A DNA stretch of 64,000 nt from Puia sp. (GCA_035499855.1 DATJXY010000027.1:7489-71488), one strand, 5' to 3'. Counted from the first letter of the stretch, positions 1,146 to 63,810 are shown. Notes: generated from the letters alone by a model not told the origin. Made by a program: numbers and translations.

Positions 1146-1220
1146 GAAGCCGGAAAGATTTATTATTCAAATTTTCTGATGATATAACTTTCGGACTTCC
1201 CGACTTTCGGTCTTTTCCGA
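1146..1220. repeat. periodic palindrome, octamer type (CTTTCGGA-like)
   Basis: CTTTCGGA CTTCCCGA CTTTCGGT CTTTTCCGA at 1188-1220; inverted partner GAAGCCGGAAAG at 1146-1157. Confidence 0.6.
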
Positions 1221-1229
1221 CCGTCGTTG

Positions 1230-1237
1230 CAAATGTA
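1230..1237 (-). promoter_or_regulatory. Bacteroidota primary-sigma -7 box for scpA
   Basis: TACATTTG on minus strand matches TAnnTTTG. Confidence 0.55.
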
Positions 1238-1262
1238 TGAAATCGTTTGGGAAGAAAATTCC

Positions 1263-2201
1263 TTATAATTTCACAGCCAATCCTATCCCCAATATCTCCT
1301 GGAACTGGAGTGTTGGCCCTCCCGGAGTTCCATCGCTCTTGACCGATTTGATATCATTATCATAGATGAGATTTAGTGAGAAGGTCACCGCGAGAACACC
1401 GGTTACTTTTACAGCCAGAAGATTGGTCATGTTAATATCTATGTCCTGAGGATCGCGAAGATAATTGGAGAAAAGATCAAGGCGTCCTGTGTACACAGAG
1501 TTTGCTCCCACTTTATGTGTGTAATTAATAGTCGCATAGGCTCCGAATTCAAACTTCACATTTTTTCCGGAGTCAACACCGAAGGCTCCGATCTTTGACA
1601 GGGAATCATTTTTTACAATGACCCATCTCGCCGAAGCCGGAGACACAAATACTGAAAAATGATCGTCGGGTTTATAATTTATACCAGGTGAAAGGAGTAC
1701 ATACGCAGGAGAAAAGAGATCTGAAGTCAGTATTTTGCTTGTATCATTTGGATAATTATATCCTTTGGCAAATTGAGATCGGAAATTGAACAAAGCACTC
1801 ACATACCAGTTTTTTGCCACTTCATATCCGTATTTGGAAAGTATATCGATCCTGTCGTCTGTTTTTCGCGTACCAAGACTGGTTGTTTTTACGCCTCCAA
1901 ATGCGAGATTGATTGTATTATCCCAGGAATTTCTTCCCTTCTTATAAAATGCATATCCATATAATGTGCTATTCAGCGCAAGAGAAGATTTATCACCGCC
2001 TGCAGCCCAATTGCTCAGAGCAGCCTGATTGAATGTGAGTGTAAACAGTCCCCCTGTTTTCCAAATTTTCGGAATAGTGTCGTTGGGGTCTTTTTTAATT
2101 TCCTGAGAAGCTTCTTTCTTGATGTTCTGTAGATCCTTATCCTGTGCATTCAAGATCAAAATAATGAATAGCATGCAGGCTAACATGCAAATCTTTTTCA
2201 T
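1263..2201 (-). CDS. DUF3078-like outer-membrane beta-barrel protein
   Basis: Signal peptide; WKTGG...FNQAALSNWAAGG; RKTDDRIDILSKYG; C-terminal QFQEILGIGLAVKL. Confidence 0.75.
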   Translation of the reverse strand: MKKICMLACMLFIILILNAQDKDLQNIKKEASQEIKKDPNDTIPKIWKTGGLFTLTFNQAALSNWAAGGDKSSLALNSTLYGYAFYKKGRNSWDNTINLAFGGVKTTSLGTRKTDDRIDILSKYGYEVAKNWYVSALFNFRSQFAKGYNYPNDTSKILTSDLFSPAYVLLSPGINYKPDDHFSVFVSPASARWVIVKNDSLSKIGAFGVDSGKNVKFEFGAYATINYTHKVGANSVYTGRLDLFSNYLRDPQDIDINMTNLLAVKVTGVLAVTFSLNLIYDNDIKSVKSDGTPGGPTLQFQEILGIGLAVKL

Positions 2202-2250
2202 AGTCTCTGTTTGTGGTATGATAAAAATGCGATGAAAATTTTTTTTGAAA

Positions 2251-2622
2251 TTATTTCTTTTTCAATTCATCGCGAATCTCGGCAAGCAGTTTTTCTGTAG
2301 CAGTGGGTTCAACTGCCGGGGGAACTTTTTTCTTTTCTATCGCTTTAGCGGCCTTAACAATCAAAAACAGGATGAAAGCAACAATGATGAATTTGATGAT
2401 TGCTGCAAGAAACTTGCCGTATTTGACAGAGCCCCAGGTGAGTTTGTCCAGGTCTTGTACTTGAGCAGCTTTCAATGCTGGTGTTAACAATAAAGGTGTA
2501 ACAACATCATCGACCAAAGACGAAACGATTGCCGTAAAAGCGGCGCCAATCACTACTGCAACTGCAAGATCGATTACATTTCCGCGTAAAGCAAAATCTC
2601 TGAACTCTTTTAGTACGCTCAT
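2251..2622 (-). CDS. mscL: large-conductance mechanosensitive channel
   Basis: LKEFRDFALRGNVIDLAVAVVIGAAF...LLAEIRDEL. Confidence 0.97.
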   Translation of the reverse strand: MSVLKEFRDFALRGNVIDLAVAVVIGAAFTAIVSSLVDDVVTPLLLTPALKAAQVQDLDKLTWGSVKYGKFLAAIIKFIIVAFILFLIVKAAKAIEKKKVPPAVEPTATEKLLAEIRDELKKK

Positions 2623-2808
2623 AAATAAGCAGTTTAATGTTAATGAATGAAAGTGCCATCTAAGATATTAAATTATAGGAACATACTGTCGGCAGGCTTA
2701 TTAAATTTTACGTATAGACAATGGAGTGATTTGTTGAAGAAAATATAAGCCGCAGAACAGTCATATTCAACAGGCTTGATTTAATTCACAAAGAAATCAT
2801 TCCCCAGT

Positions 2809-3372
2809 CTACACTGACATGATTTCTTTTTCTTTGGCAGAAAGATGTTTTTCTATCAGAGAGATATATTTGTCGGTGGTTTCCTGCATTTTTTTCTCTG
2901 TGTCCTTGGCAACATCTTCGCTAAGTCCCTGCTTTTGTAATTTCTTGATATGCTCGATAGCATCACGCCGAATATTACGCACTGCTACCTTGGTATGTTC
3001 CCCTTCTGTATTCGCTCTTTTTACATATTCTTTCCTTCTCTCTTCAGTCAAAGGAGGCATAAAAATCCGGATAGTATTTCCATCATTCTGTGGAGTTACA
3101 CCCAGGTTTGCTGCGATAATTGCCCTTTCAATAGGCTGGAGCATATTTTTTTCCCAGGGTTGAATAGTCATTGTGCGGGCATCCATGACCGATATATTGG
3201 CTACCTGGTTCAAAGCCGTGGGAGAACCATAATAATCAACAGTAAGACCATCCAACATTTGTGGATTGGCTTTACCTGCCCTGATTTTGATCAATTCGTT
3301 TTCGAGATGATTAATAGCTTTCTGCATGGCAGCCCGGGAATCTTCCAGGATATGCGTTGAATCTTCTGACAT
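2809..3372 (-). CDS. frr: ribosome recycling factor
   Basis: IRAGKANP...VDYYGSPT...PPLTEERRKE...RNIRRDA. Confidence 0.97.
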   Translation of the reverse strand: MSEDSTHILEDSRAAMQKAINHLENELIKIRAGKANPQMLDGLTVDYYGSPTALNQVANISVMDARTMTIQPWEKNMLQPIERAIIAANLGVTPQNDGNTIRIFMPPLTEERRKEYVKRANTEGEHTKVAVRNIRRDAIEHIKKLQKQGLSEDVAKDTEKKMQETTDKYISLIEKHLSAKEKEIMSV

Positions 3373-3494
3373 AAATAAAGAATTAACAGGGATGCAAACC
3401 TACATTAAATCAAAAATTACACAAAAAGATAGAGAAAATAAATTGTATAAATCTCGAAGTTAAATAAATCTGATTATGGAAGAAAATACCCTGC

Positions 3495-4646
3495 TCAATT
3501 TTTCTGTTCCAGGATGGTGTCTTTGATCAATGAAATCAGTTTCGATTCTTTTACATTGCCATTTTCAGGTTGTTTTCCATTCTTCGACAAAATAAGTTTT
3601 GGTTTTGAGCGGGCATAATATGAAATAGCGATAAATCCGAAGAAGAAAGCAAAGACAGAAAGAATCAACAAAGTGCAGCCAAGTGATCTGCCAAAATAAA
3701 CAAGAGCGACGAGGATCAGGTTCATGGAAACAAGCAGAATGGTAATAGATCTATGGGACAGGCCTCTGTCAAGTAAAAGATGATGGATGTGATTTCGGTC
3801 TGGACTAAATGGCGAACGACGTTTGAATATTCTGATGGAAAATACTCTCAGTGTATCTAATAAAGGAATCATCAGAATCGTAAAGCCGATAGCCGCTGAA
3901 GATTCCAATATAGGCATAGGCAAAACAGTATCCTGACTATTCCCATTAGCGGGATCAATAAATTTAATTGCGAGAATAGCATTTACAACACCAATTAATA
4001 AAGATCCTGTATCACCCATAAATATTTTGGCCGGCTGAAAATTAAATATGAGGAAAGCAAGCAGGCTGCCTGATAATGAAAATGCCAATATATAATAGGA
4101 AGGCATATCCAGATTAAGAAAATAAATACCGAATAAAAGTGATGACATCAGACCAAGGGTTCCTGCTAATCCATCTACCCCATCTATTAAATTGAAAGAA
4201 TTAATGATGACGATAATCGTAAAATAAGTAATCAGCAGACTGAACATTTCAGGCAAATTATAAATCCCAAAAAATCCATGCATGCTTCTGATCTGAATTC
4301 TGCCATAATAAATAATCAGGAATGCAGCCAGAACCTGTCCGATAAATTTTTTAATGGGTGAAATAACCAGGATATCATCTTTCAGGCCAAGGAAGAAAAT
4401 GACCAGGGAAGCGGCGATAAAATATTGAAATTCGGAAGAAGATTTGAAATTAACCGTAAGCAGACAGCCAAAAACAAAACCTGCGAAAATGCCGATACCT
4501 CCCAGTGGTGTGATAGCTGTATGATGAATCTTCCGTTCGTCGGGCATATCGAACAGTTTCTTCATTTCGGCGACATTAATAATTACCGGGATGGCTAAAA
4601 AAGTAATAGTAAATGAAATGGCGACAGAGAGTATTACATCAAACAT
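3495..4646 (-). CDS. MraY/WecA/TagO-family undecaprenyl-phosphate sugar-1-phosphate transferase
   Basis: GLKDDI, NSFNLIDGVDGLA, IFMGDTGSLLIG, PDRNHIHH motifs; start placed at ATG 4646 (MFDVIL). Confidence 0.88.
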   Translation of the reverse strand: MFDVILSVAISFTITFLAIPVIINVAEMKKLFDMPDERKIHHTAITPLGGIGIFAGFVFGCLLTVNFKSSSEFQYFIAASLVIFFLGLKDDILVISPIKKFIGQVLAAFLIIYYGRIQIRSMHGFFGIYNLPEMFSLLITYFTIIVIINSFNLIDGVDGLAGTLGLMSSLLFGIYFLNLDMPSYYILAFSLSGSLLAFLIFNFQPAKIFMGDTGSLLIGVVNAILAIKFIDPANGNSQDTVLPMPILESSAAIGFTILMIPLLDTLRVFSIRIFKRRSPFSPDRNHIHHLLLDRGLSHRSITILLVSMNLILVALVYFGRSLGCTLLILSVFAFFFGFIAISYYARSKPKLILSKNGKQPENGNVKESKLISLIKDTILEQKN

Positions 4647-4885
4647 TGGCCTAATTTGTAATTCAAAAATAAATCCATTTTTTATTTTGCCACTAAACCA
4701 ACCTACCAATGAACCATCTTCCGTCAATCATTCAGATTAACACATACTATAACCAAAACAACATTAAGGCAGCAGATTTGATGAATCTTACGGAGCGAAT
4801 ATGAAGGCAAATTAAGGCAAAAGTTTAATATAAGGATAAATAAATTCCGTTAGCTTTGCCGGCTACATTCCATTAATACTTTTAT

Positions 4886-5719
4886 ATGGCTGATTTAAAA
4901 GCAATTGCCTCTCAAATTCGTCGCGATATCGTCCGCATGGTTCATGGGGCTAATAGTGGTCATCCTGGTGGCTCTTTAGGCTGTACCGATTTTTTTACTG
5001 CCTTGTACTTTGAAATCATGGATCATAATCCTCAATTTTCAATGGATGGCAAAAATGAAGATATTTTTTTCCTTTCGAATGGACATATTTCCCCCGTTTT
5101 TTACGCTTCATTGGCAAGGTCTGGCTACTTCGACATCAAAGAGCTGTCTACTTTTCGTAAAATCAATTCGAGATTACAAGGCCATCCTGCTACTCATGAA
5201 CACCTTCCGGGAATCCGTATTGCCAGCGGTTCTCTTGGACAAGGTATGAGTGTTGCCATTGGAGCCGCGCTATCTAAAAAACTCAATAACGATAAAAATA
5301 TTGTATTCTCTCTTCATGGAGATGGTGAGCTCGACGAAGGTCAGATCTGGGAAGCTCTCCTGTTTGCTGCACATCATAAAGTAGATAATCTCATTTCAAC
5401 TGTCGACTGGAATCATCAGCAAATAGACGGTACTACAGATAAGGTAATGAACCTGGGAAATATCCGTCAGAAATTCGAGGCCTTTGGATGGACAACATTA
5501 GAAATGAATGGCAATGATATTGATGAAGTGATTGCCACATTGAAAAAAGCAAAATCCATGACAGGTAATGGAAAACCTGTAGCTATCATGATGCATACGA
5601 TCATGGGCAAAGGAGTAGATTTTATGGAAAATGATCACAACTGGCATGGAGTCGCTCCCAATGATGAACAATTGCAAAAAGCCCTCGCTCAATTACCTGT
5701 AACTTTGGGAGATTACTGA
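4886..5719 (+). CDS. transketolase, N-terminal (TPP-binding) subunit
   Basis: SGHPGGSLG, LSNGHISP, GSLGQG, GDGELDEGQIWEA; 277 aa, N-terminal half only. Confidence 0.93.
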   Translation: MADLKAIASQIRRDIVRMVHGANSGHPGGSLGCTDFFTALYFEIMDHNPQFSMDGKNEDIFFLSNGHISPVFYASLARSGYFDIKELSTFRKINSRLQGHPATHEHLPGIRIASGSLGQGMSVAIGAALSKKLNNDKNIVFSLHGDGELDEGQIWEALLFAAHHKVDNLISTVDWNHQQIDGTTDKVMNLGNIRQKFEAFGWTTLEMNGNDIDEVIATLKKAKSMTGNGKPVAIMMHTIMGKGVDFMENDHNWHGVAPNDEQLQKALAQLPVTLGDY

Positions 5720-5723
5720 GGCC

Positions 5724-5827
5724 GTGAATGGTCAATAGTGAATAATCATTCATGAGTCGTGAGACGTGAAAACAGAATATTCGCTAAGTCTAGAAAAGTA
5801 TTTCACGTTTCACAATTCATCATTCAC
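5724..5827. repeat. periodic palindrome, heptamer type (GTGAATG/GTGAGAC)
   Basis: GTGAATG GTCAATA GTGAATA ATCATTC ATGAGTC GTGAGAC GTGAAAA (5724-5772) and ATTTCAC GTTTCAC AATTCAT CATTCAC (5800-5827). Confidence 0.85.
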
Positions 5828-7044
5828 GATCTAAGCTCTATCGGTTGCGCTGCAGCCTTACGGGAAGGCAGCCACGAAGCCAGAAGCGCCACTACCAGAA
5901 TTGTAGTTAAGACCAATAAAAAATCCGTTGCAACTAATTTTACCGGATAATAACTGATCAGAAAAGAATCGCCCTGCAGGGGAACCAGATGATATTTTAC
6001 CTGCAGCCAGCAAACAAAAACAGCTAAAAGAATTCCTGTTGCCCCACCGAGAATGGCAAGCAATATTCCCTCGCTCAAAAAAATTTTTTGAATATAATTG
6101 TCATTTGCGCCTAATGCTTTCAACACCTGGATATCTTTTTGTTTTTCCAAAACAAGCATGGTGAGTGCGCCAACCATATTGAAAGCAGCGACGATCAGAA
6201 TGAGGGTCAATACACAGTAGATCACCCATTTTTCCGTCCGCATAACATTATACAAGCTTTGATTTTGCTCATATCTTGTCTGAACCAAATATCCGTTACC
6301 AAATATTAATTGCAATGCTGACTTTGTAGCATCTGATTTTGAAGGATCTTTCAGCTCGATTTCTGCTCCGCTGTATTCATCCGCCTTTAAATCCAGCATC
6401 TGCTTCATAAAGTCCAAATTTGTAATCACATATTTATTGTCGAAATCCTGTTGAATGATGAATGTTCCTGTAGTAGCAATAGTGCTGGTGCTGACAGATT
6501 CCGTGAGATCAGCTGAAGCCGTGCGATCCGCTTTTTTAAACATATAAACAGACAAAGGAATTGTTTCCCTGTCTGATTCAATAGCCAATGCATTTTCAAT
6601 TCCCGCCCCTATCACGGCGCCGGGATGGTCAGCCGTCCCCAACTCAAAATCACCTCTCACCAATTTTCGTGACACCCCTGCTATATTCTTATAATTGCTG
6701 TCAACTCCCTTTAAAATCACTGGCTGCATGGTTCCGGATTGAAGTAAGGCCTTATCTTCTACAACCAATGAATAACCGCGGATATTTTCTGCTCCGCTAA
6801 GTTGTTTTAATTGACCGGAGGACAGGGTCATGAACTTTCCTGTTGCAGGAGATATCCTGATATCAGTATAAAAATCGGCATACAAAGATTTCACGAGATC
6901 TTCCAGTCCATTAAAAACACTCAATACAATAATCAATGATGCCGTACCAACTATAATCGCAGCCATACTCACCCAGGAAATGACATTGATTGCATTGGTT
7001 GATTTTTTGGCCTTGAAATATCGCCACGCAAAAAGAAAATTCAA
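5824..7044 (-). CDS. LolC/E (FtsX-like) ABC transporter permease
   Basis: AWRYFKAKKSTNAINVISW; AAFNMVGALTMLVLEKQKDIQVLKALGA; TTG start. Confidence 0.85.
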   Translation of the reverse strand: MNFLFAWRYFKAKKSTNAINVISWVSMAAIIVGTASLIIVLSVFNGLEDLVKSLYADFYTDIRISPATGKFMTLSSGQLKQLSGAENIRGYSLVVEDKALLQSGTMQPVILKGVDSNYKNIAGVSRKLVRGDFELGTADHPGAVIGAGIENALAIESDRETIPLSVYMFKKADRTASADLTESVSTSTIATTGTFIIQQDFDNKYVITNLDFMKQMLDLKADEYSGAEIELKDPSKSDATKSALQLIFGNGYLVQTRYEQNQSLYNVMRTEKWVIYCVLTLILIVAAFNMVGALTMLVLEKQKDIQVLKALGANDNYIQKIFLSEGILLAILGGATGILLAVFVCWLQVKYHLVPLQGDSFLISYYPVKLVATDFLLVLTTILVVALLASWLPSRKAAAQPIELRS

Positions 7045-7063
7045 AGTTTGGATTTGTTTATGA

Positions 7064-7441: not shown

Positions 7442-7533
7442 ATCGTTAACAATTTTCAATGTAAATTTACAGCTTATTCACTTGTGGGCAATAGCCAATA
7501 AAGCTGCGGGGCTCATTGAGTAATATCCAATAA

Positions 7534-9351: not shown

Positions 9352-9439
9352 GCTTCGGTTTCATTTACATTTACTTCGTTTGCTACAATTTGTAGTTTTA
9401 TATTCGTGCCGAATTGTTTCTATTTTTAATAACCAGCAC

Positions 9440-11550: not shown

Positions 11551-11583
11551 ATACGAATATGCAAATTTGCAAGATGTGCAAAT
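11551..11583. repeat. octamer tandem array (RTGCRAAT type)
   Basis: ATACGAAT ATGCAAAT TTGCAAGA T GTGCAAAT; same unit as 63721-63797. Confidence 0.6.
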
Positions 11584-11630
11584 AATTATCAATTCCTGAA
11601 AAAATTTAGTGATTGCATGTTTACAGGTTG

Positions 11631-12080
11631 CTAAAACTTTCTGATCAAAAAAACGCCGACAATTAACAGGATTGCACCTGCAATTTTCCCAACAGAAATT
11701 TCACGTATACTTATTCCTAACCAACCGAAATGATCGAAAAGCATGGCGATCATCATCTGCCCTGCTATAACCAGACTAAAAGACAAAGCAACACCCAGCC
11801 GTGGTACCAATACAACAATACCTGCCACATAAAAAGTGCCCAGCAATCCGCCAATCCATATCCACCAGGGAGATTGACGGAATGGAATATCCTGGAAATG
11901 AATTTGTCGGGAGATGAGCAAATAAAAAAATAATGCAATAGTTCCCACTCCGAAAGAAATAAATGCCGTAACAATTGAACTACTAACGACCCTGGATAAA
12001 CGAGCATTGATGATCGCTTGTATGGGAAGCAATGCACCCAATACGAGGGCCATGATGATAAAAAGAAAACGGGGCTGCAT
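11631..12080 (-). CDS. DMT family transporter (YdcZ/DUF606-like)
   Basis: GALLPIQAIINARL; WWIWIGGLLG; AGQMMIAMLFDHFGWLG. Confidence 0.88.
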   Translation of the reverse strand: MQPRFLFIIMALVLGALLPIQAIINARLSRVVSSSIVTAFISFGVGTIALFFYLLISRQIHFQDIPFRQSPWWIWIGGLLGTFYVAGIVVLVPRLGVALSFSLVIAGQMMIAMLFDHFGWLGISIREISVGKIAGAILLIVGVFLIRKF

Positions 12081-20271: not shown

Positions 20272-21228
20272 ATGGGAAAATTGGTCCGGATAGGAACAAG
20301 AGAAAGCCGGTTGGCTGTTTGGCAGGCAACTGAAGTAATGAATTTATTAGCCCATCAGAAAATAAAAGCTGAACTGGTTTTCATAAAGAGTGAAGGTGAT
20401 ATTGACCTGCAAACCCCCTTGTACGAAATGGGCGTACAGGGTATTTTTACAAAAAGTCTTGATATTGCTCTGCTGAATAATAGAATTGATATTGCTGTAC
20501 ATTCTATGAAAGATGTACCCACACAATTACCAAATGGAATCATACAGGCGGCAGTACTAAAAAGAGGAAACTCTAAAGATTTGCTTGTATATAGAGATGA
20601 ATTGGAGACAGTGAATCGTGAATTGTCAATGGCGAATGATAAGAAAAAAATTTCCAATTCATCATTTATTGTTGCTACCAGCAGCATCCGTCGTAAGGCC
20701 CAATGGTTGAATCGATACCCCGAACATCAAATAGAAAATTTGAGAGGCAATGTGAATTCCCGCTTGCAAAAGCTGAAAGAAAATAGTTGGAACGGAGCGA
20801 TCTTTGCCGCCGCAGGGTTGGAAAGAATTAATCTTCGTCCTGAAAAGGCCATTGAACTTGATTGGATGTTACCAGCACCTGCCCAGGGAGCAATCATGGT
20901 CGTTTGCAGGGAAAATGATTTGGACATATATAACGATTGCCGCCACTTGCATGATGATCGTACTGCTCAATGCACTAAAATAGAAAGAGATTTTTTGAGA
21001 GCATTACTGGGTGGCTGTTCTACTCCTATCGCAGCTTTCGCCGAAATAGAAAAAAATGAAATTTATTTCAGAGGAAATATTTTGACACCGGATGGAAGTC
21101 AAAAAGCAGAAATAGAAAAGAAACTGCCATTGGAAAAAATGAGCAATCTCGGCAAAATCGCTGCAGAGGAACTATTAATCAATGGCGGCAAAAAAATTAT
21201 AGAGCAATTCCATCATGCAGAAAAATAA
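20272..21228 (+). CDS. hemC: hydroxymethylbilane synthase (porphobilinogen deaminase)
   Basis: IGTRESRLAVWQA, DIAVHSMKDVP, ATSSIRR, LRGNVNSRL, GGCSTPI. Confidence 0.97.
   Translation: MGKLVRIGTRESRLAVWQATEVMNLLAHQKIKAELVFIKSEGDIDLQTPLYEMGVQGIFTKSLDIALLNNRIDIAVHSMKDVPTQLPNGIIQAAVLKRGNSKDLLVYRDELETVNRELSMANDKKKISNSSFIVATSSIRRKAQWLNRYPEHQIENLRGNVNSRLQKLKENSWNGAIFAAAGLERINLRPEKAIELDWMLPAPAQGAIMVVCRENDLDIYNDCRHLHDDRTAQCTKIERDFLRALLGGCSTPIAAFAEIEKNEIYFRGNILTPDGSQKAEIEKKLPLEKMSNLGKIAAEELLINGGKKIIEQFHHAEK
20596..20667. repeat. periodic palindrome embedded in frame in hemC
   Basis: ATGAATT GGAGACA GTGAATC GTGAATT GTCAATG GCGAATG (20597-20638); perfect 11-bp IR GATGAATTGGA (20596-20606) / TCCAATTCATC (20653-20663). 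Confidence 0.75.
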
Positions 21229-24031: not shown

Positions 24032-25000
24032 ATGCAGCGACGAAACAGAATTCTAAGGGCTGGTTCTTCTATCAGAAGTCTTGTTGCCGAAACTATTTTA
24101 ACTCCTGATGATTTTATCGTTCCGCTTTTTATCGACGAGGGGAAAAATGTAAAGACTGAAATTGTGTCCATGCCCGGATATTACCGGAACAGCATTGATA
24201 TTACTGTAAAAGAAGTTAAGGAGCTATGGAAACTGGGTTTGAAATCAGTGCTGATTTTTATAAAATGCGCGGATGAACTGAAAGATAATACCGGGAAAGA
24301 AGCATGGAATAAGAATGGGCTCATGCAGCGAAGCATCCAGTCTATTAAAGAAGCTGTACCGGAAATGGTGGTAATGACTGATGTTGCACTTGATCCTTAT
24401 TCATCTTTTGGACATGATGGCATCGTAAAGGGAAATGAAATTGTAAACGATGAAACTGTAGAAGCCCTTGTGAAAATGAGCCTGAGTCATGCCGAAGCCG
24501 GAGCGGATTTCGTCGCTCCCAGTGATATGATGGACGGGCGTATCGGATCAATCAGAAAAGGACTTGAAGAAAATGGTTTTATCAAAACGGGGATAATGGC
24601 ATATAGTGCCAAATATGCTTCCTGCTTTTATGGTCCTTTTCGTGATGCCCTGGATTCGGCCCCGGGTTTTGGTGATAAAAAAACTTACCAGATGGATTAT
24701 GCAAACCGGATTGAAGCCATCAAAGAAACAATAATGGATGTGGAGGAAGGAGCTGATATTGTCATGGTAAAACCTGCCCTAGCTTACCTGGATATCATCC
24801 GTGAAGTAAAAAATGCAGTGCATGTTCCCGTTAGTGCGTATAATATTAGCGGTGAATATTCAATGATTAAAGCAGCGGCTAAAATGGGCTGGCTAAATGA
24901 AGAAAAAGCAATTCTTGAAGTCCTGACTGCAATTAAACGCGCGGGAGCCGATTTGATAGCAACCTATTTTGCAAAAGATGCAGTGAAACTGATATCGTGA
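24032..25000 (+). CDS. hemB: porphobilinogen synthase (ALA dehydratase)
   Basis: DVALDPYSSFGHDG, APSDMMDGRI, FYGPFRDAL, MVKPALAYLD. Confidence 0.97.
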   Translation: MQRRNRILRAGSSIRSLVAETILTPDDFIVPLFIDEGKNVKTEIVSMPGYYRNSIDITVKEVKELWKLGLKSVLIFIKCADELKDNTGKEAWNKNGLMQRSIQSIKEAVPEMVVMTDVALDPYSSFGHDGIVKGNEIVNDETVEALVKMSLSHAEAGADFVAPSDMMDGRIGSIRKGLEENGFIKTGIMAYSAKYASCFYGPFRDALDSAPGFGDKKTYQMDYANRIEAIKETIMDVEEGADIVMVKPALAYLDIIREVKNAVHVPVSAYNISGEYSMIKAAAKMGWLNEEKAILEVLTAIKRAGADLIATYFAKDAVKLIS

Positions 25001-25463
25001 AAGGTGAATGGTCAATGGTAAATGTATCCTACTATGAAAACATATTGTTAACCTCAAACTTTATGCTATATTTCTTATTCTTAATCACCATAAAATGGAT
25101 ATCGATCGGGTTTCAAAAAAACTTGTACTCTCCTGTTATAGATTAACAAATGGATTTCCTACTGAAGAAAAATTTGGGATAGTTTCGCAAATGAGGCGAG
25201 CTGCTTTATCAGTACATTTAAATATTGCTGAGGCTGCTTCCAGAAAATCAGGTATTGAAAGAAAGCGGTTTTTTGAAATCGCCAGGGGATCTGTAATTGA
25301 AATCGATGCTGCATTTGACATAGCTTCCGATCTTGATTATTAAAAAAAAATAAATTCAGATTCACTTAGGGAAGTCATCATCAAATGCTTTAAAATTCTA
25401 AGCTCTTTAATCAATTCAAAAAATATAATTAATCCTGTTCACCATTGACCATTCACTATTCAC
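24997..25463. mobile_element. heptamer-arm inverted-repeat cassette carrying a four-helix-bundle gene
   Basis: Left arm GTGAAAG GTGAATG GTCAATG GTAAATG (24997-25024); right arm TGTTCAC CATTGAC CATTCAC TATTCAC (25436-25463); 16-bp perfect core; mobility is inferred, not shown. Confidence 0.6.
25068..25448 (+). pseudogene. four-helix-bundle protein (23S rRNA-IVP family), in-frame TAA at 25341-25343
   Basis: IFLILNHHKMDI...FPTEEKFGIVSQMRRAALSVHLNIAEAASRKS...FFEIARGSVIEIDAAFDIA; reading frame continues past TAA as KKINSDSLREVIIKCFKILSSLIN (helix 4). Confidence 0.8.
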
Positions 25464-26762
25464 ATGTACACCGATTCCAGCAAACAACTTTTCCAGCGCG
25501 CTCAGCAATCTATTCCGGGTGGTGTAAACTCACCTGTCCGTGCTTTTAAAAGTGTAGGAGGCAATCCTATTTTCATTAAAAAAGCAAAGGGCGCTTATTT
25601 ATATGATGTAGATGACAACCGATACATTGATTATATTGCTTCCTGGGGACCGATGATTCTCGGTCATGCTTATGAGCCCGTCGTAAAAGCTATTCATGAA
25701 AAAGCATTGGATTCCACTTCATATGGAGCGCCCACAGAACTGGAAATTGAAATGGCAGAATTGATCATCAGCATGGTGCCTCATGTTGATCTGATCAGGA
25801 TGGTGAGCAGCGGAACAGAAGCCTGTATGAGCGCCATCAGGCTGGCAAGAGGATTTACCGGAAGAAATAAAATCATCAAGTTTGAAGGTCACTATCATGG
25901 ACATGCGGATTCTTTTCTTGTAAAGGCAGGAAGTGGGGTAGCAACCCTGAACATTCAAACTGTTCCGGGAATAACTGCAGGCGTATCCAATGATACACTC
26001 ACCTGCGCTTTCAATGATTTGGAAGCTGTTGAACAAATTTCGCATGAGCATCGGGGTGAGATCGCAGCTATTATTGTTGAACCGGTTGCCGGTAATATGG
26101 GCTGCATCCTGCCAAAACCCGGATTTCTGGAAGGATTGAGAAAAATCTGTGATGAGCAAAATATCATACTAATCCTGGATGAGGTAATGACTGGTTTTCG
26201 GCTTGCACCCGGCGGAGCGCAGGAAAAATTGAATATCCGAGCTGATCTGGTAACATATGGAAAAGTCATTGGCGGAGGCTTACCTGTAGGCGCTTTTGGC
26301 GGAAGAAAAGAAATCATGCAGCATATTGCTCCTCTTGGAAATGTTTACCAGGCAGGTACGCTGAGTGGAAATCCACTTGCAATGATTGCCGGTTATATTA
26401 CATTACAGGAATTAAAGAAAAACCTCTCTATCTACGATGAATTAAATAAAAAAACAGTTGATTTGAAAAATGGATTGGACAAAATCCTTCAATCAATCGG
26501 AATACCTTATATGATCAATCAGTTTGGATCCATGATCAGTATACATTTCACCAGCCATCCCGTGACTGATTTCGCATCCGCAGCTTCGGCTGATTCGGAA
26601 AAATTTAAAAAATTTTTTCATGCAATGCTTAACAGGGGAATTTATTTACCCCCCTCTGCTTTTGAAAGCTGGTTTCTGAATAATGCACTGACAAAAGAAG
26701 ATATTCAGTACACGATCAGCGCCGCAGAAGAAAGTCTGAAAGAAATTTCATCAACCAGATAA
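25464..26762 (+). CDS. hemL: glutamate-1-semialdehyde 2,1-aminomutase
   Basis: [45 protein letters not shown]. Confidence 0.97.
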
Positions 26763-30696: not shown

Positions 30697-30762
30697 GTCA
30701 AACTTGAAATGTCTAACGTGAAAGAATATTTCACATTTCACGTCTGACGTCTCATATTCAAA
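30697..30762. repeat. periodic palindrome, heptamer type (GTSARAY)
   Basis: GTCAAAC TTGAAAT GTCTAAC GTGAAAG / ATTTCAC ATTTCAC GTCTGAC GTCTCAT ATTCAAA. Confidence 0.8.
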
Positions 30763-40550: not shown

Positions 40551-40626
40551 TTGTAAAGTTAAAAAATACTAAATGACTTAATTTTTTTTAACCGTTAAAT
40601 AATTCTCTAATCCTCACGGTTAGATT

Positions 40627-40748
40627 CCGATAGTTTCGGGGGACATAATTCTGAAGAAATATTGAAGGGGCCTGTCTATATTATTACACGGCTTTGTAGA
40701 ATAAGCTCAACAGGGAGTCCTGACTTTCTTAAACTTCCAAACTATCGG
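40627..40748. repeat. inverted repeat, probably a degenerate octamer-type element
   Basis: CCGATAGTTT (40627-40636) / AAACTATCGG (40739-40748), perfect 10 bp. Confidence 0.45.
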
Positions 40749-40764
40749 TATACGAGAAATGATT

Positions 40765-46368: not shown

Positions 46369-46435
46369 TTTTTTTCGCACAAAGCTAAAGGAGAAAAGGG
46401 GGGAATTCTCTTTTCCTCTGTTAGCCCTGTGCGAA
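46352..46435. repeat. imperfect palindrome at the convergent MMPL/TlpA junction
   Basis: AGAGGGAAAAGAG (46352-46364) / CTCTTTTCCTCT (46408-46419); TTCGCAC / GTGCGAA outer pair. Confidence 0.5.
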
Positions 46436-50195: not shown

Positions 50196-50229
50196 GTGTA
50201 GTATTTTGTAATAAAAATACTGATAAAAA

Positions 50230-50311
50230 AACCGGAAGAATCAGTAAGCTTGAAAACAGGAATATGTTTATTTTGCCAGTCCTGTTTACATGGTCTTCCG
50301 AACTTCCGGTT
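50230..50311. repeat. degenerate octamer-type palindrome
   Basis: AACCGGAAG (50230-50238) / CTTCCGAA CTTCCGGTT (50295-50311). Confidence 0.45.
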
Positions 50312-50336
50312 CTTCGCTACTAACTTTATTATTAAT

Positions 50337-51462: not shown

Positions 51463-51544
51463 GATGGTTTGATGGTTAGATCGCCTGATAGCTGTAAAAT
51501 CCTATTCACAATCTAACCATCAAGCAATCAAACAATCAAACAAT
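51463..51544. repeat. periodic palindrome, octamer type (GATGGTTT)
   Basis: GATGGTTT GATGGTTA GATCGCCT GATAGCTG / ATCTAACC ATCAAGCA ATCAAACA ATCAAACA; 13-bp perfect IR. Confidence 0.85.
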
Positions 51545-55307: not shown

Positions 55308-55388
55308 GTTGACAGATGAAAGGTTACAATAACAAATTATCATGAGTATTGTAAATAAAGTCTGTCATCTGTCAACCGTCATCTATTA
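55308..55388. repeat. periodic palindrome, heptamer type (GATGACA)
   Basis: GTTGACA GATGAAA GGTTACA / TCTGTCA TCTGTCA ACCGTCA TCTATTA; 12-bp perfect IR. Confidence 0.8.
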
Positions 55389-56057: not shown

Positions 56058-56059
56058 AG

Positions 56060-57163: not shown

Positions 57164-57281
57164 AGAATTATCTGCTGTTGGAAATCCAAATTTATTATAA
57201 TTAGGCTAAGGTTTTTCCAAATAATTCAGGGCCTTTCATTTTATAAAAAGAAATGCTAATTAATGATAAAAAATTCCCCAA

Positions 57282-58103: not shown

Positions 58104-58885
58104 TTTTTTACAATCTTATCTTTCATTTCTGGTAAAATGGATTTGAGCAAAAGATCACCATCACTGAATTCTGCGTAAGTATAATAACGGATCCAGTCAC
58201 CTAAATTGATATAGCGGCTTCCATTTTCGAATAAAAAATCAATCGGCAAATGCCGGTGCCCAAAAATAAAATAATCGAAATATTCTTTTTGCAGAACTTC
58301 TTTGCAATAAATCAGCAGCCATTCTTTGTCTTCTCCTAAAAAATGCTCATCTGTTTGCCCGGTGACTGCCCTGCTTTTCCGGCTGAAATAATTAGCCAGT
58401 CCTACTCCGGCAACCGGTGGCAATATCCCAAATAACCATTGACAAAACTTATTACGGAAAATTTTTTTTATGAATTTGTATCCTTGATCGCCGGGACCCA
58501 ACCCATCCCCATGGCCGATCAGAAATTTTTTTCCCTGCCTTTCAAATTGTTTAGGTTCGTGATATACAGGTATATTCAATTCTTCCTCAAAATATCCTTT
58601 CATCCACATATCATGATTACCTACAAAAAAATGGATGGGTATTTTTAAATCGGTTATTTCAGCCAGTTTACCGAGAATACGGGTGTACCCTTTAGGCACG
58701 ACTGTTTTATATTCATACCAGAAATCAAAAAGGTCACCAACAATAAAAATTTCTGCAGCATCTTCTTTTATCTCCTCCAGGAAATGAACAATGCGTTTTT
58801 CCCTTTCAAGGCTGGAAGCATGGCTAGGGGCGCCCAGATGAAAATCAGACAAAAAATATATTTTCTTCCCTATGGGAATTTGCAT
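58100..58885 (-). CDS. lpxH: UDP-2,3-diacylglucosamine diphosphatase (LpxH-like)
   Basis: FLSDFHLG, GDLFDFW, GNHDMW, GHGDG, FGHRH, NLGDW. Confidence 0.85.
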   Translation of the reverse strand: MQIPIGKKIYFLSDFHLGAPSHASSLEREKRIVHFLEEIKEDAAEIFIVGDLFDFWYEYKTVVPKGYTRILGKLAEITDLKIPIHFFVGNHDMWMKGYFEEELNIPVYHEPKQFERQGKKFLIGHGDGLGPGDQGYKFIKKIFRNKFCQWLFGILPPVAGVGLANYFSRKSRAVTGQTDEHFLGEDKEWLLIYCKEVLQKEYFDYFIFGHRHLPIDFLFENGSRYINLGDWIRYYTYAEFSDGDLLLKSILPEMKDKIVKK

Positions 58886-58902
58886 CTTCAAATATAAATA
58901 TT

Positions 58903-58962
58903 AAGGACAAGGGACAAAATGCAATTTCCTCTTTGAACTTTGACCTTTGTCCCTTGCACTTT
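58903..58962. repeat. periodic palindrome, heptamer type (GTCAAAG)
   Basis: CAAGGGACAAA (58908-58918) / TTTGTCCCTTG (58946-58956); CTTTGAA CTTTGAC CTTTGTC CCTTGCA array. Confidence 0.8.
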
Positions 58963-59603
58963 TAAGTATCCTGATCCACCAAAAAAACATACACTTCTTT
59001 TGGTCCGTGCACACCGACAACCAGGGTTTTTTCGATATCAGCCGTCCGGCTCGGGCCTGTAGCAAACGTAATGAGTGAAGGATAATGGTCCTGATATTTT
59101 TCTTTTAATATCTGCAAACCATCCCTGATATCGTAAACTAACTGTTTTGTGTAAGCGATGCAAATATGCACCGGGGCGTATACGCTGGTGGTTCTTCCGC
59201 TTTGTTGGGCAGAACTCATAATAATACTTCCGGTCCTCGCAATCAATAATTCGCACGACGTTATTGCTGCATCACAGTTGGAAAGACCTTCTTCTGAAAA
59301 AAGATCAAAATGATGTTCGAGTAAAACTGACTGCAGTTTTTTTTCCCTGCAAAAAATATTTTTATATGACAAATGGTTGATCAGGCCCTGCAATTGCGCC
59401 ACCAATTCCTGATGATTCACGCAAAAAATAAATTTCCCCTGAAGTTTTGTAAACTGTTCGGCAAATTCAACTTCCAGTTCCTGTCTCGAAGGATGAAACA
59501 CGGAACTATTCCCTTCACTTTGCGGAAAAGGAAGAGGCGTTGAATGACTCAACGCCTGCCTTATTTTTTTGAGAATATTTTCCTTTGCCGGTGATATTTT
59601 CAT
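58962..59603 (-). CDS. LUD domain protein (LutC/YkgG-like)
   Basis: LIARTGSIIMSS, FATGPSRTADIEKTLVVGVHGPKEV. Confidence 0.9.
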   Translation of the reverse strand: MKISPAKENILKKIRQALSHSTPLPFPQSEGNSSVFHPSRQELEVEFAEQFTKLQGKFIFCVNHQELVAQLQGLINHLSYKNIFCREKKLQSVLLEHHFDLFSEEGLSNCDAAITSCELLIARTGSIIMSSAQQSGRTTSVYAPVHICIAYTKQLVYDIRDGLQILKEKYQDHYPSLITFATGPSRTADIEKTLVVGVHGPKEVYVFLVDQDT

Positions 59604-59607
59604 TTCA

Positions 59608-61698
59608 TTATTTGACTTCTTCCTTCGGAGTTGGATTGATGCTCGTTCCCGAACCGGAAGAAGTTCCATTTTCATTCATCGCTACTTTATTATGATCGTT
59701 GTGATCAGAAACATCCAAAGCTCTTTTTTCTTCATATGGTCTTTTTCCGATCAGGGACTCAACATCACTCTGGAACAACACTTCTTTTTCCAGTAGTGCT
59801 TCCGCTAATTTCTTTACTTCCTTGCTCTTTTGCGTTAGCAATTTCTTGGTATGATCATATGCCTGGTCGATCAGTTTGCGGACTTCCTCATCAATCAGTT
59901 TAGAAGTTTCTTCAGAATATGGCTTTGTAAAAGCATTTTCCTGCACGGGATCATAAAAACTCACATTACCGACTTTATCGTTCATTCCGTAGATGGTAAC
60001 CATGGAATATGCAATCTTGGTGACCTGTTGCAGATCATTCTGCGCACCAGTCGAAATTTTTCCAAAATTCAATTCTTCACTTGCCCGGCCCCCGAGGGTC
60101 ATACAGATCTGGTCAAACAATTGATCGGTATTGTAGAGATATTGCTCTTTAGGCGTGTACTGCGCATATCCCAGGGCAGCAACTCCTCTCGGGACAATTG
60201 TCACCTTTAATAACGGGTATGCATGTTCGAGAAACCACCCGCAAATAGCATGTCCTGCTTCATGATAAGCAATGATCCTCTTTTCGTCCGGAGAAATAAT
60301 TTTGTTCTTTTTTTCAAGTCCGCCGATTACTCTGTCTACGGCATCCTGAAAATCGTCCATTTCAACAGTTTCCTTGCCCTTTCTCGCAGCAATCAGGGCC
60401 GCTTCATTACATACATTGGCAATATCAGCGCCTGCGAACCCAGGAGTCTGTTCGGCTAATTTATGTATATCTAATTTGCTGGAAATTTTGATTGGTTTCA
60501 GATGGACTTTGAAAATAGCTTCCCGTCCTTTCAGATCTGGTTTGTCGATTGAGATCTGCCTGTCAAACCTTCCCGGGCGAAGCAAAGCACTATCCAATAC
60601 ATCGGGTCTGTTAGTGGCAGCCAGAATAATAATACCACTATCACCGCCAAAACCATCCATTTCGACCAATAATTGATTCAAAGTACTTTCTCTTTCATCA
60701 TTGCTCATGATAGCATTCTTGCCACGGGCGCGTCCGATTGCATCTATTTCATCAATGAAAATGATACAGGGGGCTTTCTCTCTTGCTTGTTTGAAAAGAT
60801 CACGAACACGGCTGGCACCCACTCCCACAAACAATTCAACAAAATCAGAACCACTCATAGAGAAGAAAGGAACCTGAGCTTCTCCGGCCATGGCCTTAGC
60901 CAATAAAGTTTTTCCTGTTCCCGGAGGTCCGACCAATAATGCGCCTTTTGGAATTTTTCCGCCCAGTGAAGTATATTTTTTAGGGTTTTTCAGAAAGTCA
61001 ACGATTTCCATCACTTCTACTTTCGCTTCGTCCAAACCTGCTACATCATTGAAAGTGATATTGACTTTTGTGCCCTTATCAAACAAAGTAGCTTTTGATT
61101 TTCCTATATTAAAAATGCCACCGGGTCCGCCGCTTCCACCCTGTCCACCCATTTTTCGCATGAGCATGACCCAAATCAGCAAAATGATCAGTATTGGTAA
61201 AACTATTTGTAATAATCCTGGTATCCAATCGCCTTCAGTTACCGGCGCATAAGGCACTTCCAACTGAGGGTTTTTTGCAAAAAAATCAGTGAGGCGTTTT
61301 TCGAATTCATCAATCTTGGCTACCTGGAATTCAAATTGAGGACCTTCTGGTTTTATAGGCAGGTTTTTACCTAATTTTTCTTTGTAATAAGGTTTATCCA
61401 GACTGTCCTTTTTAATATAGACTCTGACAATGTTCTTGTTGGTAACCAGCACCAGTTTGGCAACATCACCTTTTTCAAGCATATTTTCCCGGAATTCCAG
61501 TTCGGAATCCAAATGATGTGCATCGGGACTAAAACCCCAAAACTGAAAACCCAGTAATATGGCTGCAATGATTCCCCAGACCCAATAAATACTAAAGCGC
61601 GGGCCTTTCCTGGGGCCATTATTATTATCATCTCCTCCCCTTGGTCTGAACCTGGTGAAATTGGTCTTATCGTTCTGTTTCATGTTATCCTGTGGCAT
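59608..61698 (-). CDS. ftsH: ATP-dependent zinc metalloprotease FtsH
   Basis: [32 protein letters not shown]. Confidence 0.97.
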
Positions 61699-61779
61699 GT
61701 TATATTCGTCTCCTCTGATCTATTATTTAATGTTTGGGTGATTAAAAAGTTCAAAAAAACGGGTTAAACGGTATAATTT

Positions 61780-62184
61780 CTATCCTTCATGCTCTTCTAA
61801 AATGGCATCGCTCCACATGTCCTCCAACTTATAAAAACGGCGGCTTTCAGGAAGCATTACATGAACGACGATATTTACATAATCAATCAACACCCACTGT
61901 AACGCGCGAATACCTTCATGTTTGTATGGAAACTCCTCACATTTTCTTTTCACAACCGCTTCCACGTGATCGGCAATTGCTTTTACCTGAGTATGACTGC
62001 CGGCCTCACAAATAATGAAGAAATCAGCTACGGCTTCATGTATTTTTCTGAGGTCGAGTGATACAATGTTTTCGCCTTTTTTTTCCTGGATAGTTTGTAT
62101 AATGGTTTTAAAAATCTTCGCATTCTTCGTTAACCGCGCAACTCTCTTAGGTTTCCGGGTAACCAGCATTGACAATTGTTCCAA
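61780..62184 (-). CDS. rsfS: ribosome silencing factor
   Basis: EKKGENIVSLDLR...DFFIIC...WVLIDYVNIVVHVM...FYKLEDMWSDA. Confidence 0.94.
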   Translation of the reverse strand: MEQLSMLVTRKPKRVARLTKNAKIFKTIIQTIQEKKGENIVSLDLRKIHEAVADFFIICEAGSHTQVKAIADHVEAVVKRKCEEFPYKHEGIRALQWVLIDYVNIVVHVMLPESRRFYKLEDMWSDAILEEHEG

Positions 62185-62416
62185 TAATCAAATTGTTTTA
62201 TTGATGAAATTGTTTTTCGTGTGAAGTAAGTCTTAGTTCCTGCCTGCAGCTTATTAAATCTGATTGCCCATGCAGGCATTTTATTGATTGGCCGCTTATG
62301 TTTTTCACTTTTTACTGAATATCAAAAACTATAAATTACTTGTCCTATTTTCGCACTGCTCAAAAGTAATAATCTTTTACCACATCCCACTATCAACCTT
62401 TGGGAATACCAAATAC

Positions 62417-63157
62417 ATGATCGGGCATCCTTTTATTGAGTTGCAGTCGGTGGATAGTACCAACAACTATGCCATGGCACAGGTTCATGCTGGATTGGCT
62501 TTTCACGGAACAACCTATTTTAGTTACGAACAGTTAAATGGCAGGGGTCAAAGAGGAAAATCATGGGTGACAAAACCTGGGGAAAATATTACTATGAGCA
62601 TTTTGCTCGAACCCGATTTCCTCAGGCCAATGCAACAATTTATTCTGAGTGCTTCAATAGCCCGTGGCTCTTATGATTTCCTGATAAAATATTTTCCCGA
62701 CGACTGGTATATTAAATGGCCCAATGATCTTTACTGGCGTGACAGAAAGGCAGGGGGGATCCTGATTGAAAGCATATGTAAAGGAGACAAATGGCTTTTT
62801 GCAGTTGTGGGAATGGGGATCAATATTAATCAGACACGGTTTCCCGCCGATATCAGCAGAGCTATTTCCCTTAAACAAATTACTGGAAAAACATATGAAG
62901 TAAAAAAGCTTGCAATGGAATTGTGTAACTCGATTGGCACCATATACGAGCAATTGAGAAATGAAGATTATGATAAAATAATCGAAAGTTATAATGAATG
63001 CTTATATAAACGCAATGAACTGGTCAGATTAAAAAAAGGAAATATCATATTCGAAACCACAATCAAAGAAGTCACAGCCCAGGGACAATTGATTACCGTT
63101 AACGGTATGGAAAGAAGCTTTGATTTGAGTGAAATTGAGTGGGTTTTTGATGAATGA
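62417..63157 (+). CDS. birA: biotin--[acetyl-CoA-carboxylase] ligase, no N-terminal HTH
   Basis: VDSTN, GRGQRGKSW, IKWPNDLY, KAGGILIE, GININQ. Confidence 0.92.
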   Translation: MIGHPFIELQSVDSTNNYAMAQVHAGLAFHGTTYFSYEQLNGRGQRGKSWVTKPGENITMSILLEPDFLRPMQQFILSASIARGSYDFLIKYFPDDWYIKWPNDLYWRDRKAGGILIESICKGDKWLFAVVGMGININQTRFPADISRAISLKQITGKTYEVKKLAMELCNSIGTIYEQLRNEDYDKIIESYNECLYKRNELVRLKKGNIIFETTIKEVTAQGQLITVNGMERSFDLSEIEWVFDE

Positions 63158-63158
63158 T

Positions 63159-63233
63159 TCGGGATATTAGATAGGTAATAAGAGACGGGCGATATGAATC
63201 TTATTATCCTACATCTCTCATCTCATATCCCTA
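63159..63233. repeat. periodic palindrome, heptamer type (NNNNGAT)
   Basis: CGGGAT ATTAGAT AGGTAAT AAGAGAC GGGCGAT / TCTTATT ATCCTAC ATCTCTC ATCTCAT ATCCCTA. Confidence 0.7.
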
Positions 63234-63245
63234 TCAATGATACAA

Positions 63246-63722
63246 TTATTGTTTAGATAACTCTTCCCATGTTTTTATAATCTCTTCCGCATGTTGCTTA
63301 TTCCGGGGTCTTATAAATATTTTCCGGATTGTTCCTTTTTCATCAATCAGAAAAGTAGTACGGTGAAGTCCCATATAGGTGCGTCCATATAATTTCTTCT
63401 CACCCCAAACTCCATACTGGTCGATAATCTTATGTTCGGGATCAGCAATCAGGGTAAATGGCAGACTGAATTTTTTTTCAAACTTCTGATGACTTTTCTC
63501 GGTATCCGGACTCAGGCCCAAGACAACAAAACCCTTTTTTTTAAGCAAAGGATAATTGTCACGCAGATTGCAGGCCTGAATTGTGCAGGTAGGCGTATCG
63601 TCTTCCGGATAAAAAAACAATACAACTTTTTTCCCTTTAAAATCCGAGAGCGAAATTTTTTTCCCGTTCTGATCATTCCCGGTAAAAAGTGGAGCCTGAT
63701 CGCCCTCTTGTAAAGCAGTCAT
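63246..63722 (-). CDS. bcp: thioredoxin-dependent thiol peroxidase (BCP)
   Basis: VVLFFYPEDDTPTCTIQACNLRD; YMGLHRTTFLIDEKG. Confidence 0.93.
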   Translation of the reverse strand: MTALQEGDQAPLFTGNDQNGKKISLSDFKGKKVVLFFYPEDDTPTCTIQACNLRDNYPLLKKKGFVVLGLSPDTEKSHQKFEKKFSLPFTLIADPEHKIIDQYGVWGEKKLYGRTYMGLHRTTFLIDEKGTIRKIFIRPRNKQHAEEIIKTWEELSKQ

Positions 63723-63810
63723 ACTAATGTGCGAATTTGCAAATGTGCAGATGTGCGAATTTAGACATCAAAAATATGCAAATCCGCACATTCGCAGATT
63801 TTCATCTGAT
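63721..63810. repeat. periodic palindrome, octamer type (GTGCGAAT)
   Basis: ATACTAAT GTGCGAAT TTGCAAAT GTGCAGAT GTGCGAAT / ATCCGCAC ATTCGCAG ATTTTCAT. Confidence 0.85.

Follow-up and report, generated by a model that had tools for sequence, protein, structure and literature searches.

The closest precedents for the elements described here are the intervening sequences (IVSs) in the 23S rRNA of Coxiella and Leptospira and the inverted GGGAATC heptamer repeats of Xanthomonas. The Coxiella 23S IVS is 428 nt long, has a 28 bp terminal stem that is cut by RNase III, and carries an open reading frame (ORF) for S23p, a protein that forms a toroidal homopentamer (PMC4990558). The heptamers GGGAATC and GGGGA(C/T)T of Xanthomonas and Nostoc were interpreted by Rehm et al. 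(2015) as formers of G-quadruplexes (G4); each Xanthomonas genome holds 70-75 convergent inverted pairs, placed at stop codons and at stable loci (PMC4692102). The window studied here, a stretch of 64,000 nt from Puia sp. (contig C27:7489-71488), belongs to a genome of 4.51 Mb (125 contigs, 39.5% GC) that its HemL and HemB relatives assign to the Chitinophagaceae, near Ferruginibacter-like metagenome-assembled genomes (MAGs). Between its hemB and hemL genes lies a cassette in which a gene of the PF05635 (S23p) family is framed by inverted arms of tandem heptamers. This cassette, its relatives elsewhere in the genome, and numerous gene-less palindromes with the same kind of arms are, on balance, probably members of one class of IVS-type insertion element located at gene boundaries.

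The hemB-hemL cassette spans positions 24997-25463, a total of 467 nt in which two 28 nt arms enclose a four-helix-bundle gene. The 5' arm (24997-25024) consists of the four heptamers GTGAAAG GTGAATG GTCAATG GTAAATG, and the 3' arm (25436-25463) reads TGTTCAC CATTGAC CATTCAC TATTCAC. The gene between them (25095-25445, plus strand) scores 93 bits against PF05635 and 8e-23 against TIGR02436, and it is decaying. Its ancestral ATG has mutated to ATA, and its ORF of 82 codons is closed by an in-frame TAA (25341-25343) in an A-run, past which a C-terminal remnant stays in frame to 25445; orthologues measure about 120 aa. The seven PF05635 copies of the genome include two with internal stops and two that are truncated. 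Proteins of this S23p/IVS family are homologues of Avd, the accessory protein of diversity-generating retroelements. The cassette fits tightly between its neighbors, with the hemB stop codon TGA (24998-25000) inside the first arm unit and the hemL ATG at 25464, directly after the 3' arm. In the minimum free energy fold of the cassette RNA, the arms form the closing stem (z −3.95). The last hemB codons have given way to the cassette, which supplies the TGA (24990-25000); at a bare junction (L189:2340-2370), a 90%-identical HemB ends in ...LLSQPV-TAA, three codons later, and hemL starts 14 nt on.

A comparison of this cassette with the 23S rRNA IVSs (Coxiella burnetii, Leptospira, Brucella, and the Xanthomonas-type S23p; PMC4990558) reveals the same PF05635/S23p cargo family, a like size (428-444 nt there, 467 nt here), and, in both, a terminal stem of about 28 bp enclosing an ORF that is often decaying. 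The rRNA IVSs, which are suspected of being selfish or mobile, occupy helix 25 or 45 of 23S rRNA, whereas the present elements lie between or inside protein-coding genes, and the window has no Rfam match, rRNA families included. The arms here are also periodic at 7 or 8 nt with fixed handedness, and this genome holds more than 20 gene-less copies for every cassette. Cleavage by RNase III has been shown for the rRNA elements only; an RNase III gene (rnc) is present in this genome.

The Xanthomonas GGGAATC repeats share with these arrays a tandem heptamer design of about four units, a conserved core with variable positions, and frequent arrangement in inverted pairs. In contrast, most units here have no G3 run (e.g., GTGAATG, AATAATC, and GATGGTTT) and are thus unable to form G4, a single genome holds many unit types, and octamers occur as well. 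The Xanthomonas study draws no link to PF05635, and its text contains neither 'S23' nor 'intervening' (PMC4692102). No literature description was found of these palindromes in Bacteroidota or of a link between heptamer arrays and PF05635. An earlier note on this window knew of no mechanistic description of the two-arm form in Bacteroidota; two-arm heptamers are on record in Xanthomonas (PMC4692102).

The architecture also recalls the hairpin-forming doublets of repetitive extragenic palindromic (REP) sequences, or REPINs, and their REP-associated tyrosine transposases (RAYTs; Bertels & Rainey 2011, PMC3116915). Both systems present a gene flanked by inverted copies of a dispersed hairpin-forming repeat, co-divergence of repeat and gene, intergenic copies, and gene-less copies far commoner than genes. 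The gene here, however, encodes a non-catalytic-looking helical bundle rather than a Y1 transposase, each arm is itself periodic, copies differ in loop and spacing, and the Y1/RAYT genes of this genome carry other, GC-rich REPs. The TAACTGA repeats of Beggiatoaceae, cyanobacteria, and some Bacteroidetes (MacGregor 2015, PMC4679880) are likewise intergenic tandem heptamers near gene boundaries in overlapping phyla, but they have a single unit sequence, are almost always direct (one inverted case), and sit just upstream of start codons.

The association between the arrays and the PF05635 genes is pervasive. In this genome, periodic inverted arms frame every one of the seven PF05635 genes, with a different unit in each case; the earlier note had suggested listing such cargo genes. 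A Chitinophagaceae sample of 89 PF05635 genes from about 35 genera yields about 75 with arms of period 7 or 8, one with period 9, and one with period 6, and handedness is identical throughout the cassettes examined in this family. Across Bacteroidota, 20 of 29 sampled genes lie between periodic arms, and the G-rich arm is 5' in 27 of the 29. Arms of 9 nt units (AGTTGATAT/AGTTGACAG) and of about 6 nt units are seen in the cassettes at L062:530-908 and L092:9429-9789, so the period is not strictly 7 or 8.

Inheritance and relocation involve gene and arms jointly. Clades of the protein tree match unit types, as exemplified by a 25-member GTGAnnn clade and a TAAGTTG clade drawn from three genomes; the two components therefore travel together, and the genes did not land in unrelated hairpins. 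An arm scores 19.5 with its own partner and 9.0 with the arms of other cassettes, the own partner is the best in its row for 46 of 72, and this advantage persists even within one unit type. When the hemB-hemL arms are aligned by hand, species differ by one unit in the register that pairs best. Six of the seven own cassette units recur exactly elsewhere in the genome; a rotation-tolerant test, allowing one mismatch, of whether every cassette has matching empties in its own genome is too permissive to discriminate, with 59 of 67 foreign units also matching and single linkage chaining 241 of 325 tracts.

Among the genomes compared, arrays are found only in those with the PF05635 family. Of 31 genomes with the gene, 16 contain at least ten matches to a three-unit GTSAATG pattern (up to three mismatches), a level reached by none of ten gene-lacking genomes (Fisher p ~0.003, hand-computed). 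Two genomes of the family that lack a PF05635 gene contain no palindromes and one and zero lag-7 tracts in 200 kb each, where the density of this genome predicts about 7 palindromes and about 11 tracts.

These arrays far exceed what chance produces. A scan for windows with at least 16 of 21 self-matches at lags 4-13 finds 254 tracts at lag 7 and 80 at lag 8 genome-wide, versus about 12 and about 11 in Markov-3 surrogates and 11-54 at every other lag. A reverse-complement partner lies within 200 nt of 163 of the 334 tracts, compared with 3 for a reversed control and 30 for a complemented control. A hairpin-first scan (arms ≥18 nt long and ≥75% complementary, loop of 3-120 nt), with thresholds set by the analyst, locates 105 loci with period-7 arms and 53 with period-8 arms genome-wide, while all other periods from 3 to 11 together give 36. 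Restricted to 2,960 intergenic segments, it returns 93 period-7 and 44 period-8 hairpins; ten surrogates matched to the dinucleotide frequencies of each segment return 0-3 (about 0.7) and 0-2 (about 0.6), respectively. The Markov-3 and the per-segment surrogates rule out an origin by chance or composition, and the shuffled-DNA comparison suggested in the earlier note thus does not refute its view of the arrays. Applied to 1.09 Mb of hemL-centred loci from 80 species, this detector yields 62 periodic palindromes.

The anatomy of the arrays is consistent across copies. The median arm contains 3.6 units, and most arms contain 3-5. The 5' arm is the one with more G than C in 79 versus 18 period-7 elements and 51 versus 0 period-8 elements (130 versus 18 in total), as against 168 versus 133 for non-periodic hairpins. 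Because the structure is palindromic, this handedness, with the G-rich arm 5', is the same on both strands; on either strand, an element presents its G/T/A-rich arm to any gene that reads into it, and its C/A/T-rich arm lies ahead of any gene that reads away from it. Within a single element, the unit variants of one arm recur in mirrored order in the other, with complementarity of up to 96-100%. The idea that the period of 7 or 8 and the handedness serve to place stops in all three frames was rejected, the excess of such stops being small (23 of 158 elements versus 15.8 for shuffled arms); several unit types contain no stop codon.

Loop lengths peak at 20-40 nt with a tail to about 200 nt, and a separate peak at about 400 nt represents the gene-bearing form. 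Since the distribution is bimodal, with only about six intermediate loops (125-202 nt), decay from cassette to empty palindrome occurs but cannot be the sole source of the latter. Dispersed copies have unrelated loop sequences, about 110 loops yielding one similar pair, and loop lengths range from 3 to 200 nt. Classic copy-paste miniature inverted-repeat transposable elements are disfavored: inverted arms are present, and interiors and loops are unrelated. The sole place with conserved loops is outside the window, at C56:99950-100920, where four to five tandem copies of an entire palindrome, with AAAGGTC / CTTTGAC units and the same loop, flank a four-helix-bundle gene.

Positions within the unit are partly invariant and partly two-state, as in G90 A96 T97 [G51/T45] G92 T81 T91 [T/A] and in a second pattern, G T [G/C] A A [A/T] [G/C], and both patterns are common to dozens of dispersed arrays. 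The earlier proposal that units are read by period rather than by sequence does not agree with this invariant core or with the tracking of protein clade by unit sequence, which indicate sequence-specific recognition or co-inheritance. Nor do the arrays differ from REP families in failing to share a sequence, as had been supposed: many of the arrays within this genome have units in common, though unit space is a continuum.

At gene boundaries, the elements are gained and lost as discrete blocks, as a comparison of the hemB-hemL junction across species illustrates. Seventeen species have a GTGAnnn-armed cassette, four have a different protein subfamily with GAAAAAT-type arms, and about eight have empty 8-mer palindromes. 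Four remnants are decayed intermediates (L010, L018, L047, L054), and about 18 species have a gap of less than 60 nt with no two-armed element, about a dozen of these being bare at 14-33 nt. The cassette state requires at least 12-14 changes on a HemB+HemL tree of 73 taxa, and the junction differs between sisters about 0.02 substitutions per site apart, as where one has an empty 8-mer element and the other a heptamer cassette. A relative with 94% identity in HemB (JGI 3300047160) has a 181 nt gap, and one with 90% has a bare junction of 14 nt. Elsewhere in the window, the element at 55308-55376 is contained in a block of about 105 nt right after a stop codon, and this block is absent from two species of the same genus. 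Gain and loss at orthologous sites, named in the earlier note as a check, are therefore abundant. Its interpretation of the short copies as empty derivatives of cassettes is sustained insofar as they belong with the cassettes, given the genes between periodic arms (7/7 and ~75/89), the decayed intermediates at hemB-hemL, and the absence of arrays from the gene-lacking genomes examined, but it does not account for sister species that carry an 8-mer empty and a heptamer cassette at the same site.

Other forms are also seen at this junction. A Segetibacter MAG has a hemB-hemL cassette with about 12 units (GTGAGGG/GTGAAAC) in the left arm and about four in the right (L033:7447-7600). In Niastella and Longitalea (L023, L025, L026, L029), direct 8-mer arrays (GCTAATGT/GCTGATAT) lie just past the hemB stop with no obvious inverted partner and thus represent one-armed forms.

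Over shorter times, the elements are stable. The segment 48333-61305 of the window is matched by a strain at about 99.8% identity, with the same gene order, on ten metagenome contigs (ENA ERZ272564xx-565xx, JGI 33000327xx-329xx, Logan SRR8881008 and SRR8881745), so the organism recurs across samples; the nearest other species is about 25% diverged at the DNA level. Over 13 kb, where these ten metagenomic strains are 99.8% identical, four elements contain one single-nucleotide polymorphism and no indels. The constancy of unit number means that the arrays are not slippage-prone, which rules out a contingency locus or hypermutable simple sequence repeat and speaks against the idea, also raised earlier, that the units are built by slippage. 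The companion idea of templated synthesis is contradicted by a genome without reverse transcriptase, and the missing PF00078 match likewise rules out synthesis by a retro-element or a telomerase-like enzyme.

A REP/RAYT system is ruled out as well, since the four PF01797 Y1 genes of this genome are flanked by different, non-periodic, GC-rich hairpins. These IS200/RAYT-like genes (C94:8803-9147, C56:55988-56323, C56:59617-59961, C54:4465-4764) have flanking hairpins of the form xCCCnnnnGGGx, which make up a classical REP-like family of their own within this genome. One of the four has a periodic palindrome nearby, taken as coincidence.

With genes called crudely as the longest ORFs of at least 300 nt, 154 of 158 elements are intergenic, at 92 co-directional, 40 convergent, and 20 divergent junctions, and they are enriched 1.6-fold at convergent ones. 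In 67 of 159 cases the incoming gene has its stop codon in or at the array, and in 105 of 159 no more than 7 nt away, as opposed to 28 and 54 of 147 for other hairpins. Intrinsic (Rho-independent) terminators are nevertheless ruled out. No T-tract follows the 3' arm, T making up 34% of the next 10 nt and 33% of intergenic DNA, and terminator-like sites are not in excess (14 versus 15.9 expected), just one of them touching an element. The earlier statement that the copies have no U-tracts and are not simply terminators accordingly holds.

Of about 14 periodic palindromes listed in the earlier note for the window, a re-reading of each site retains nine as clear two-arm elements, the hemB-hemL cassette among them; three are weak or mainly one-armed, and two are ordinary hairpins. 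A composite empty palindrome of period 7 (5723-5835; RNA fold z −4.9) begins 4 nt past a stop codon between convergent genes, its 5' arm combining GTGAATG-type and GTGAGAC-type heptamers and its 3' arm consisting of TCAC-type units. The other clear period-7 empties are at 30697-30754 (GTCAAAC TTGAAAT GTCTAAC GTGAAAG / TCACATT TCACGTC TGACGTC), at 55308-55376 (units GTTGACA/GATGAAA), at 58903-58956 (AAGGACA / CTTTGAC family), and, in a weaker form, at 63159-63231 (GGGATAT/TAGATAG ... CATCTCT CATCTCA). Clear period-8 empties are found at 51463-51544 (GATGGTTT family), between two minus-strand genes, and at 63721-63800 (AATGTGCG/AATTTGCA family), whose unit family also flanks a cassette on contig C14. 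The last clear element, of period 7 with partly decayed arms, lies within hemC (20596-20667) and is translated in frame as VNGQWSMVN...FTIHHSPFTI, a peptide image of the arms. An equivalent insert, from about 14 aa shorter to 27 aa longer, occupies the same HemC position in most Chitinophagaceae. The weak members are at 1146-1236, which has a good right 8-mer array (CTTTCGGA, 1187-1236) and about one unit in its left arm, and at 11551-11632, where a left 8-mer array (11556-11584) faces a degenerate right arm. The site at 50227-50314 is doubtful, with a 12 nt inverted repeat and one to two CTTCCGRA-like units per arm. The ordinary hairpins are at 40624-40751 (13 nt inverted repeat, 102 nt loop, no periodicity) and at 46374-46435 (24 nt imperfect arms, 14 nt loop, no periodicity of 7 or 8).

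These observations fit a model in which the full form of the element would be a cassette of 0.45-0.5 kb, with a PF05635/TIGR02436 (S23p/Avd-like) gene framed by inverted arms of about 28 nt, each composed of about four tandem units of 7 or 8 nt. The short palindromes would be the gene-less members of the class; having no ORF, they can therefore only be derivatives of the ORF-bearing IVS-type element. The arms of the transcript are predicted to pair into a stem of about 28 bp, of the type cut by RNase III in rRNA IVSs, and such pairing or processing would let the element sit harmlessly between cistrons or in a tolerant protein loop. The toroidal pentameric protein may recognize the unit core of its own arms. 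The periodicity of the arms would be inherited rather than made anew at each site, and maintained by occasional gain or loss of units together with correction from arm to arm.

Several findings weigh against this model. The co-occurrence and tree tests ignore phylogeny and horizontal exchange, the number of arrays does not scale with the number of genes, and random 200 kb samples of two gene-rich genomes contain periodic tracts and almost no short-loop empties. Unit types grade into one another without clean families, and 13% of elements are between divergent genes. Stem mismatches display no G.U tolerance on the transcribed strand (89 versus 83 in empties, 46 versus 66 in cassettes); because this asymmetry is absent from both forms, selection for an RNA stem is not demonstrated, and the complementarity of the arms may stem from DNA-level processes or symmetric protein binding. 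The family-wide retention of the hemC palindrome is difficult to reconcile with RNase III cleavage as an obligatory step. Regarding mobility, the 55308 element, the one clean insertion, shows no target-site duplication when set against genomes about 25% diverged. No mobilizing enzyme was found: the 100%-complete genome has no PF00078 match and hence no reverse transcriptase, and its Y1/RAYT genes have REPs of their own. Finally, dispersed empties have unrelated loops, and simple copying and pasting of complete empties is therefore not shown.

In one alternative, the arms are protein-binding arrays rather than pairing partners. Each arm would offer 3-5 sites to the pentameric four-helix-bundle protein, on single strands or on duplex DNA in the manner of sub-terminal repeats at transposon ends, and the arms would be inverted because the same protein reads both ends. 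TRAP, for example, binds spaced GAG repeats on single strands. An invariant core with two-state positions in dozens of dispersed arrays, protein clades that track units, stem mismatches without an RNA-strand signature, and the same handedness on both strands all favor binding, as does the correspondence of 3-5 units per arm with a homopentamer (PMC4990558). Independent sites, however, require neither the mirrored order of unit variants nor complementarity of up to 96-100%, and with at least eight abundant unit types lacking a resident gene in this genome and several resident genes broken, this explanation appears unlikely. It is decidedly improbable that the arrays are host RNA elements selected at gene ends, such as processing sites, mRNA stabilizers, insulators between cistrons, or factor-dependent bidirectional terminators, in whose loops the four-helix-bundle genes settled as passengers. 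Their placement (154/158 intergenic, convergent enrichment of 1.6-fold, abutment of stop codons) and stability among close strains suit such a role, and the Xanthomonas heptamer repeats are transcribed and at conserved loci (PMC4692102). Yet protein clade and unit sequence co-vary, there is no U-tract and no G.U signature, orthologous junctions are often bare, the related genomes examined do without the arrays, and some elements occur in divergent gaps and one inside a coding sequence.

Two further explanations invoke DNA repair and replication. If both 3' ends of a double-strand break were extended with the same G-rich units and then joined, the scar would show the handedness, the mirrored order, and a unique central filler, in keeping with a G-rich strand that runs 5' to 3' toward the center on both strands, with unique loops, and with variable unit number. 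Such scars are very improbable in a genome without reverse transcriptase and without new events among close strains, and they leave the conserved gene between the arms and the co-inheritance of gene and arms unexplained. Neutral by-products of replication slippage and quasi-palindrome template switching, which could arise on any intergenic hairpin and would lack a function or any tie to a protein, would account for tandem repeats in arms and for mismatches that look strand-neutral, and both slippage and arm-to-arm correction are known processes. This last explanation is largely refuted and retains hardly any probability: periods 7 and 8 account for 158 loci versus 36 for other periods from 3 to 11, handedness is fixed and unit cores are conserved, sister genomes of similar composition lack the arrays, and strains do not vary in length while orthologous presence and absence are block-wise.

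An IVS-type insertion class may be extended, tentatively and with considerable doubt, to a two-part self-propagating system of PF05635 proteins and inverted 7 or 8 nt arrays. Each protein lineage, as a ring pentamer, would read its own unit core along an arm, at about one unit per subunit, much as TRAP reads spaced triplets, and by this binding promote the maintenance, spread, or processing of cassettes and empties. If true, this would give a RAYT-like role to a non-catalytic protein and would also explain STRR sequences (short repetitive sequences that are repeated in tandem), other heptamer repeats in several phyla, and the rRNA IVSs.

For annotation, the elements explain many odd gene ends, whose stop codons are donated by repeats, in-frame inserts such as that in HemC, and a large share of the long intergenic hairpins of Bacteroidota, and the labels terminator and REP are unsuitable for them. 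Heptamer repeats, including cyanobacterial STRR sequences (reportedly described by Mazel in 1990 and Vioque in 1997), the Xanthomonas GGGAATC repeats, and the long simple sequence repeat ('LSSR') excess, have been noted for more than 30 years and, to our knowledge, have no accepted origin or function; we likewise know of no role for the S23p/IVS protein family. Co-inheritance, the lack of arrays in the compared genomes without the gene family, and a constant handedness at gene boundaries suggest that the two are parts of one system. The heptamer repeats of bacteria thereby gain a candidate protein partner, the IVS-type four-helix bundle.

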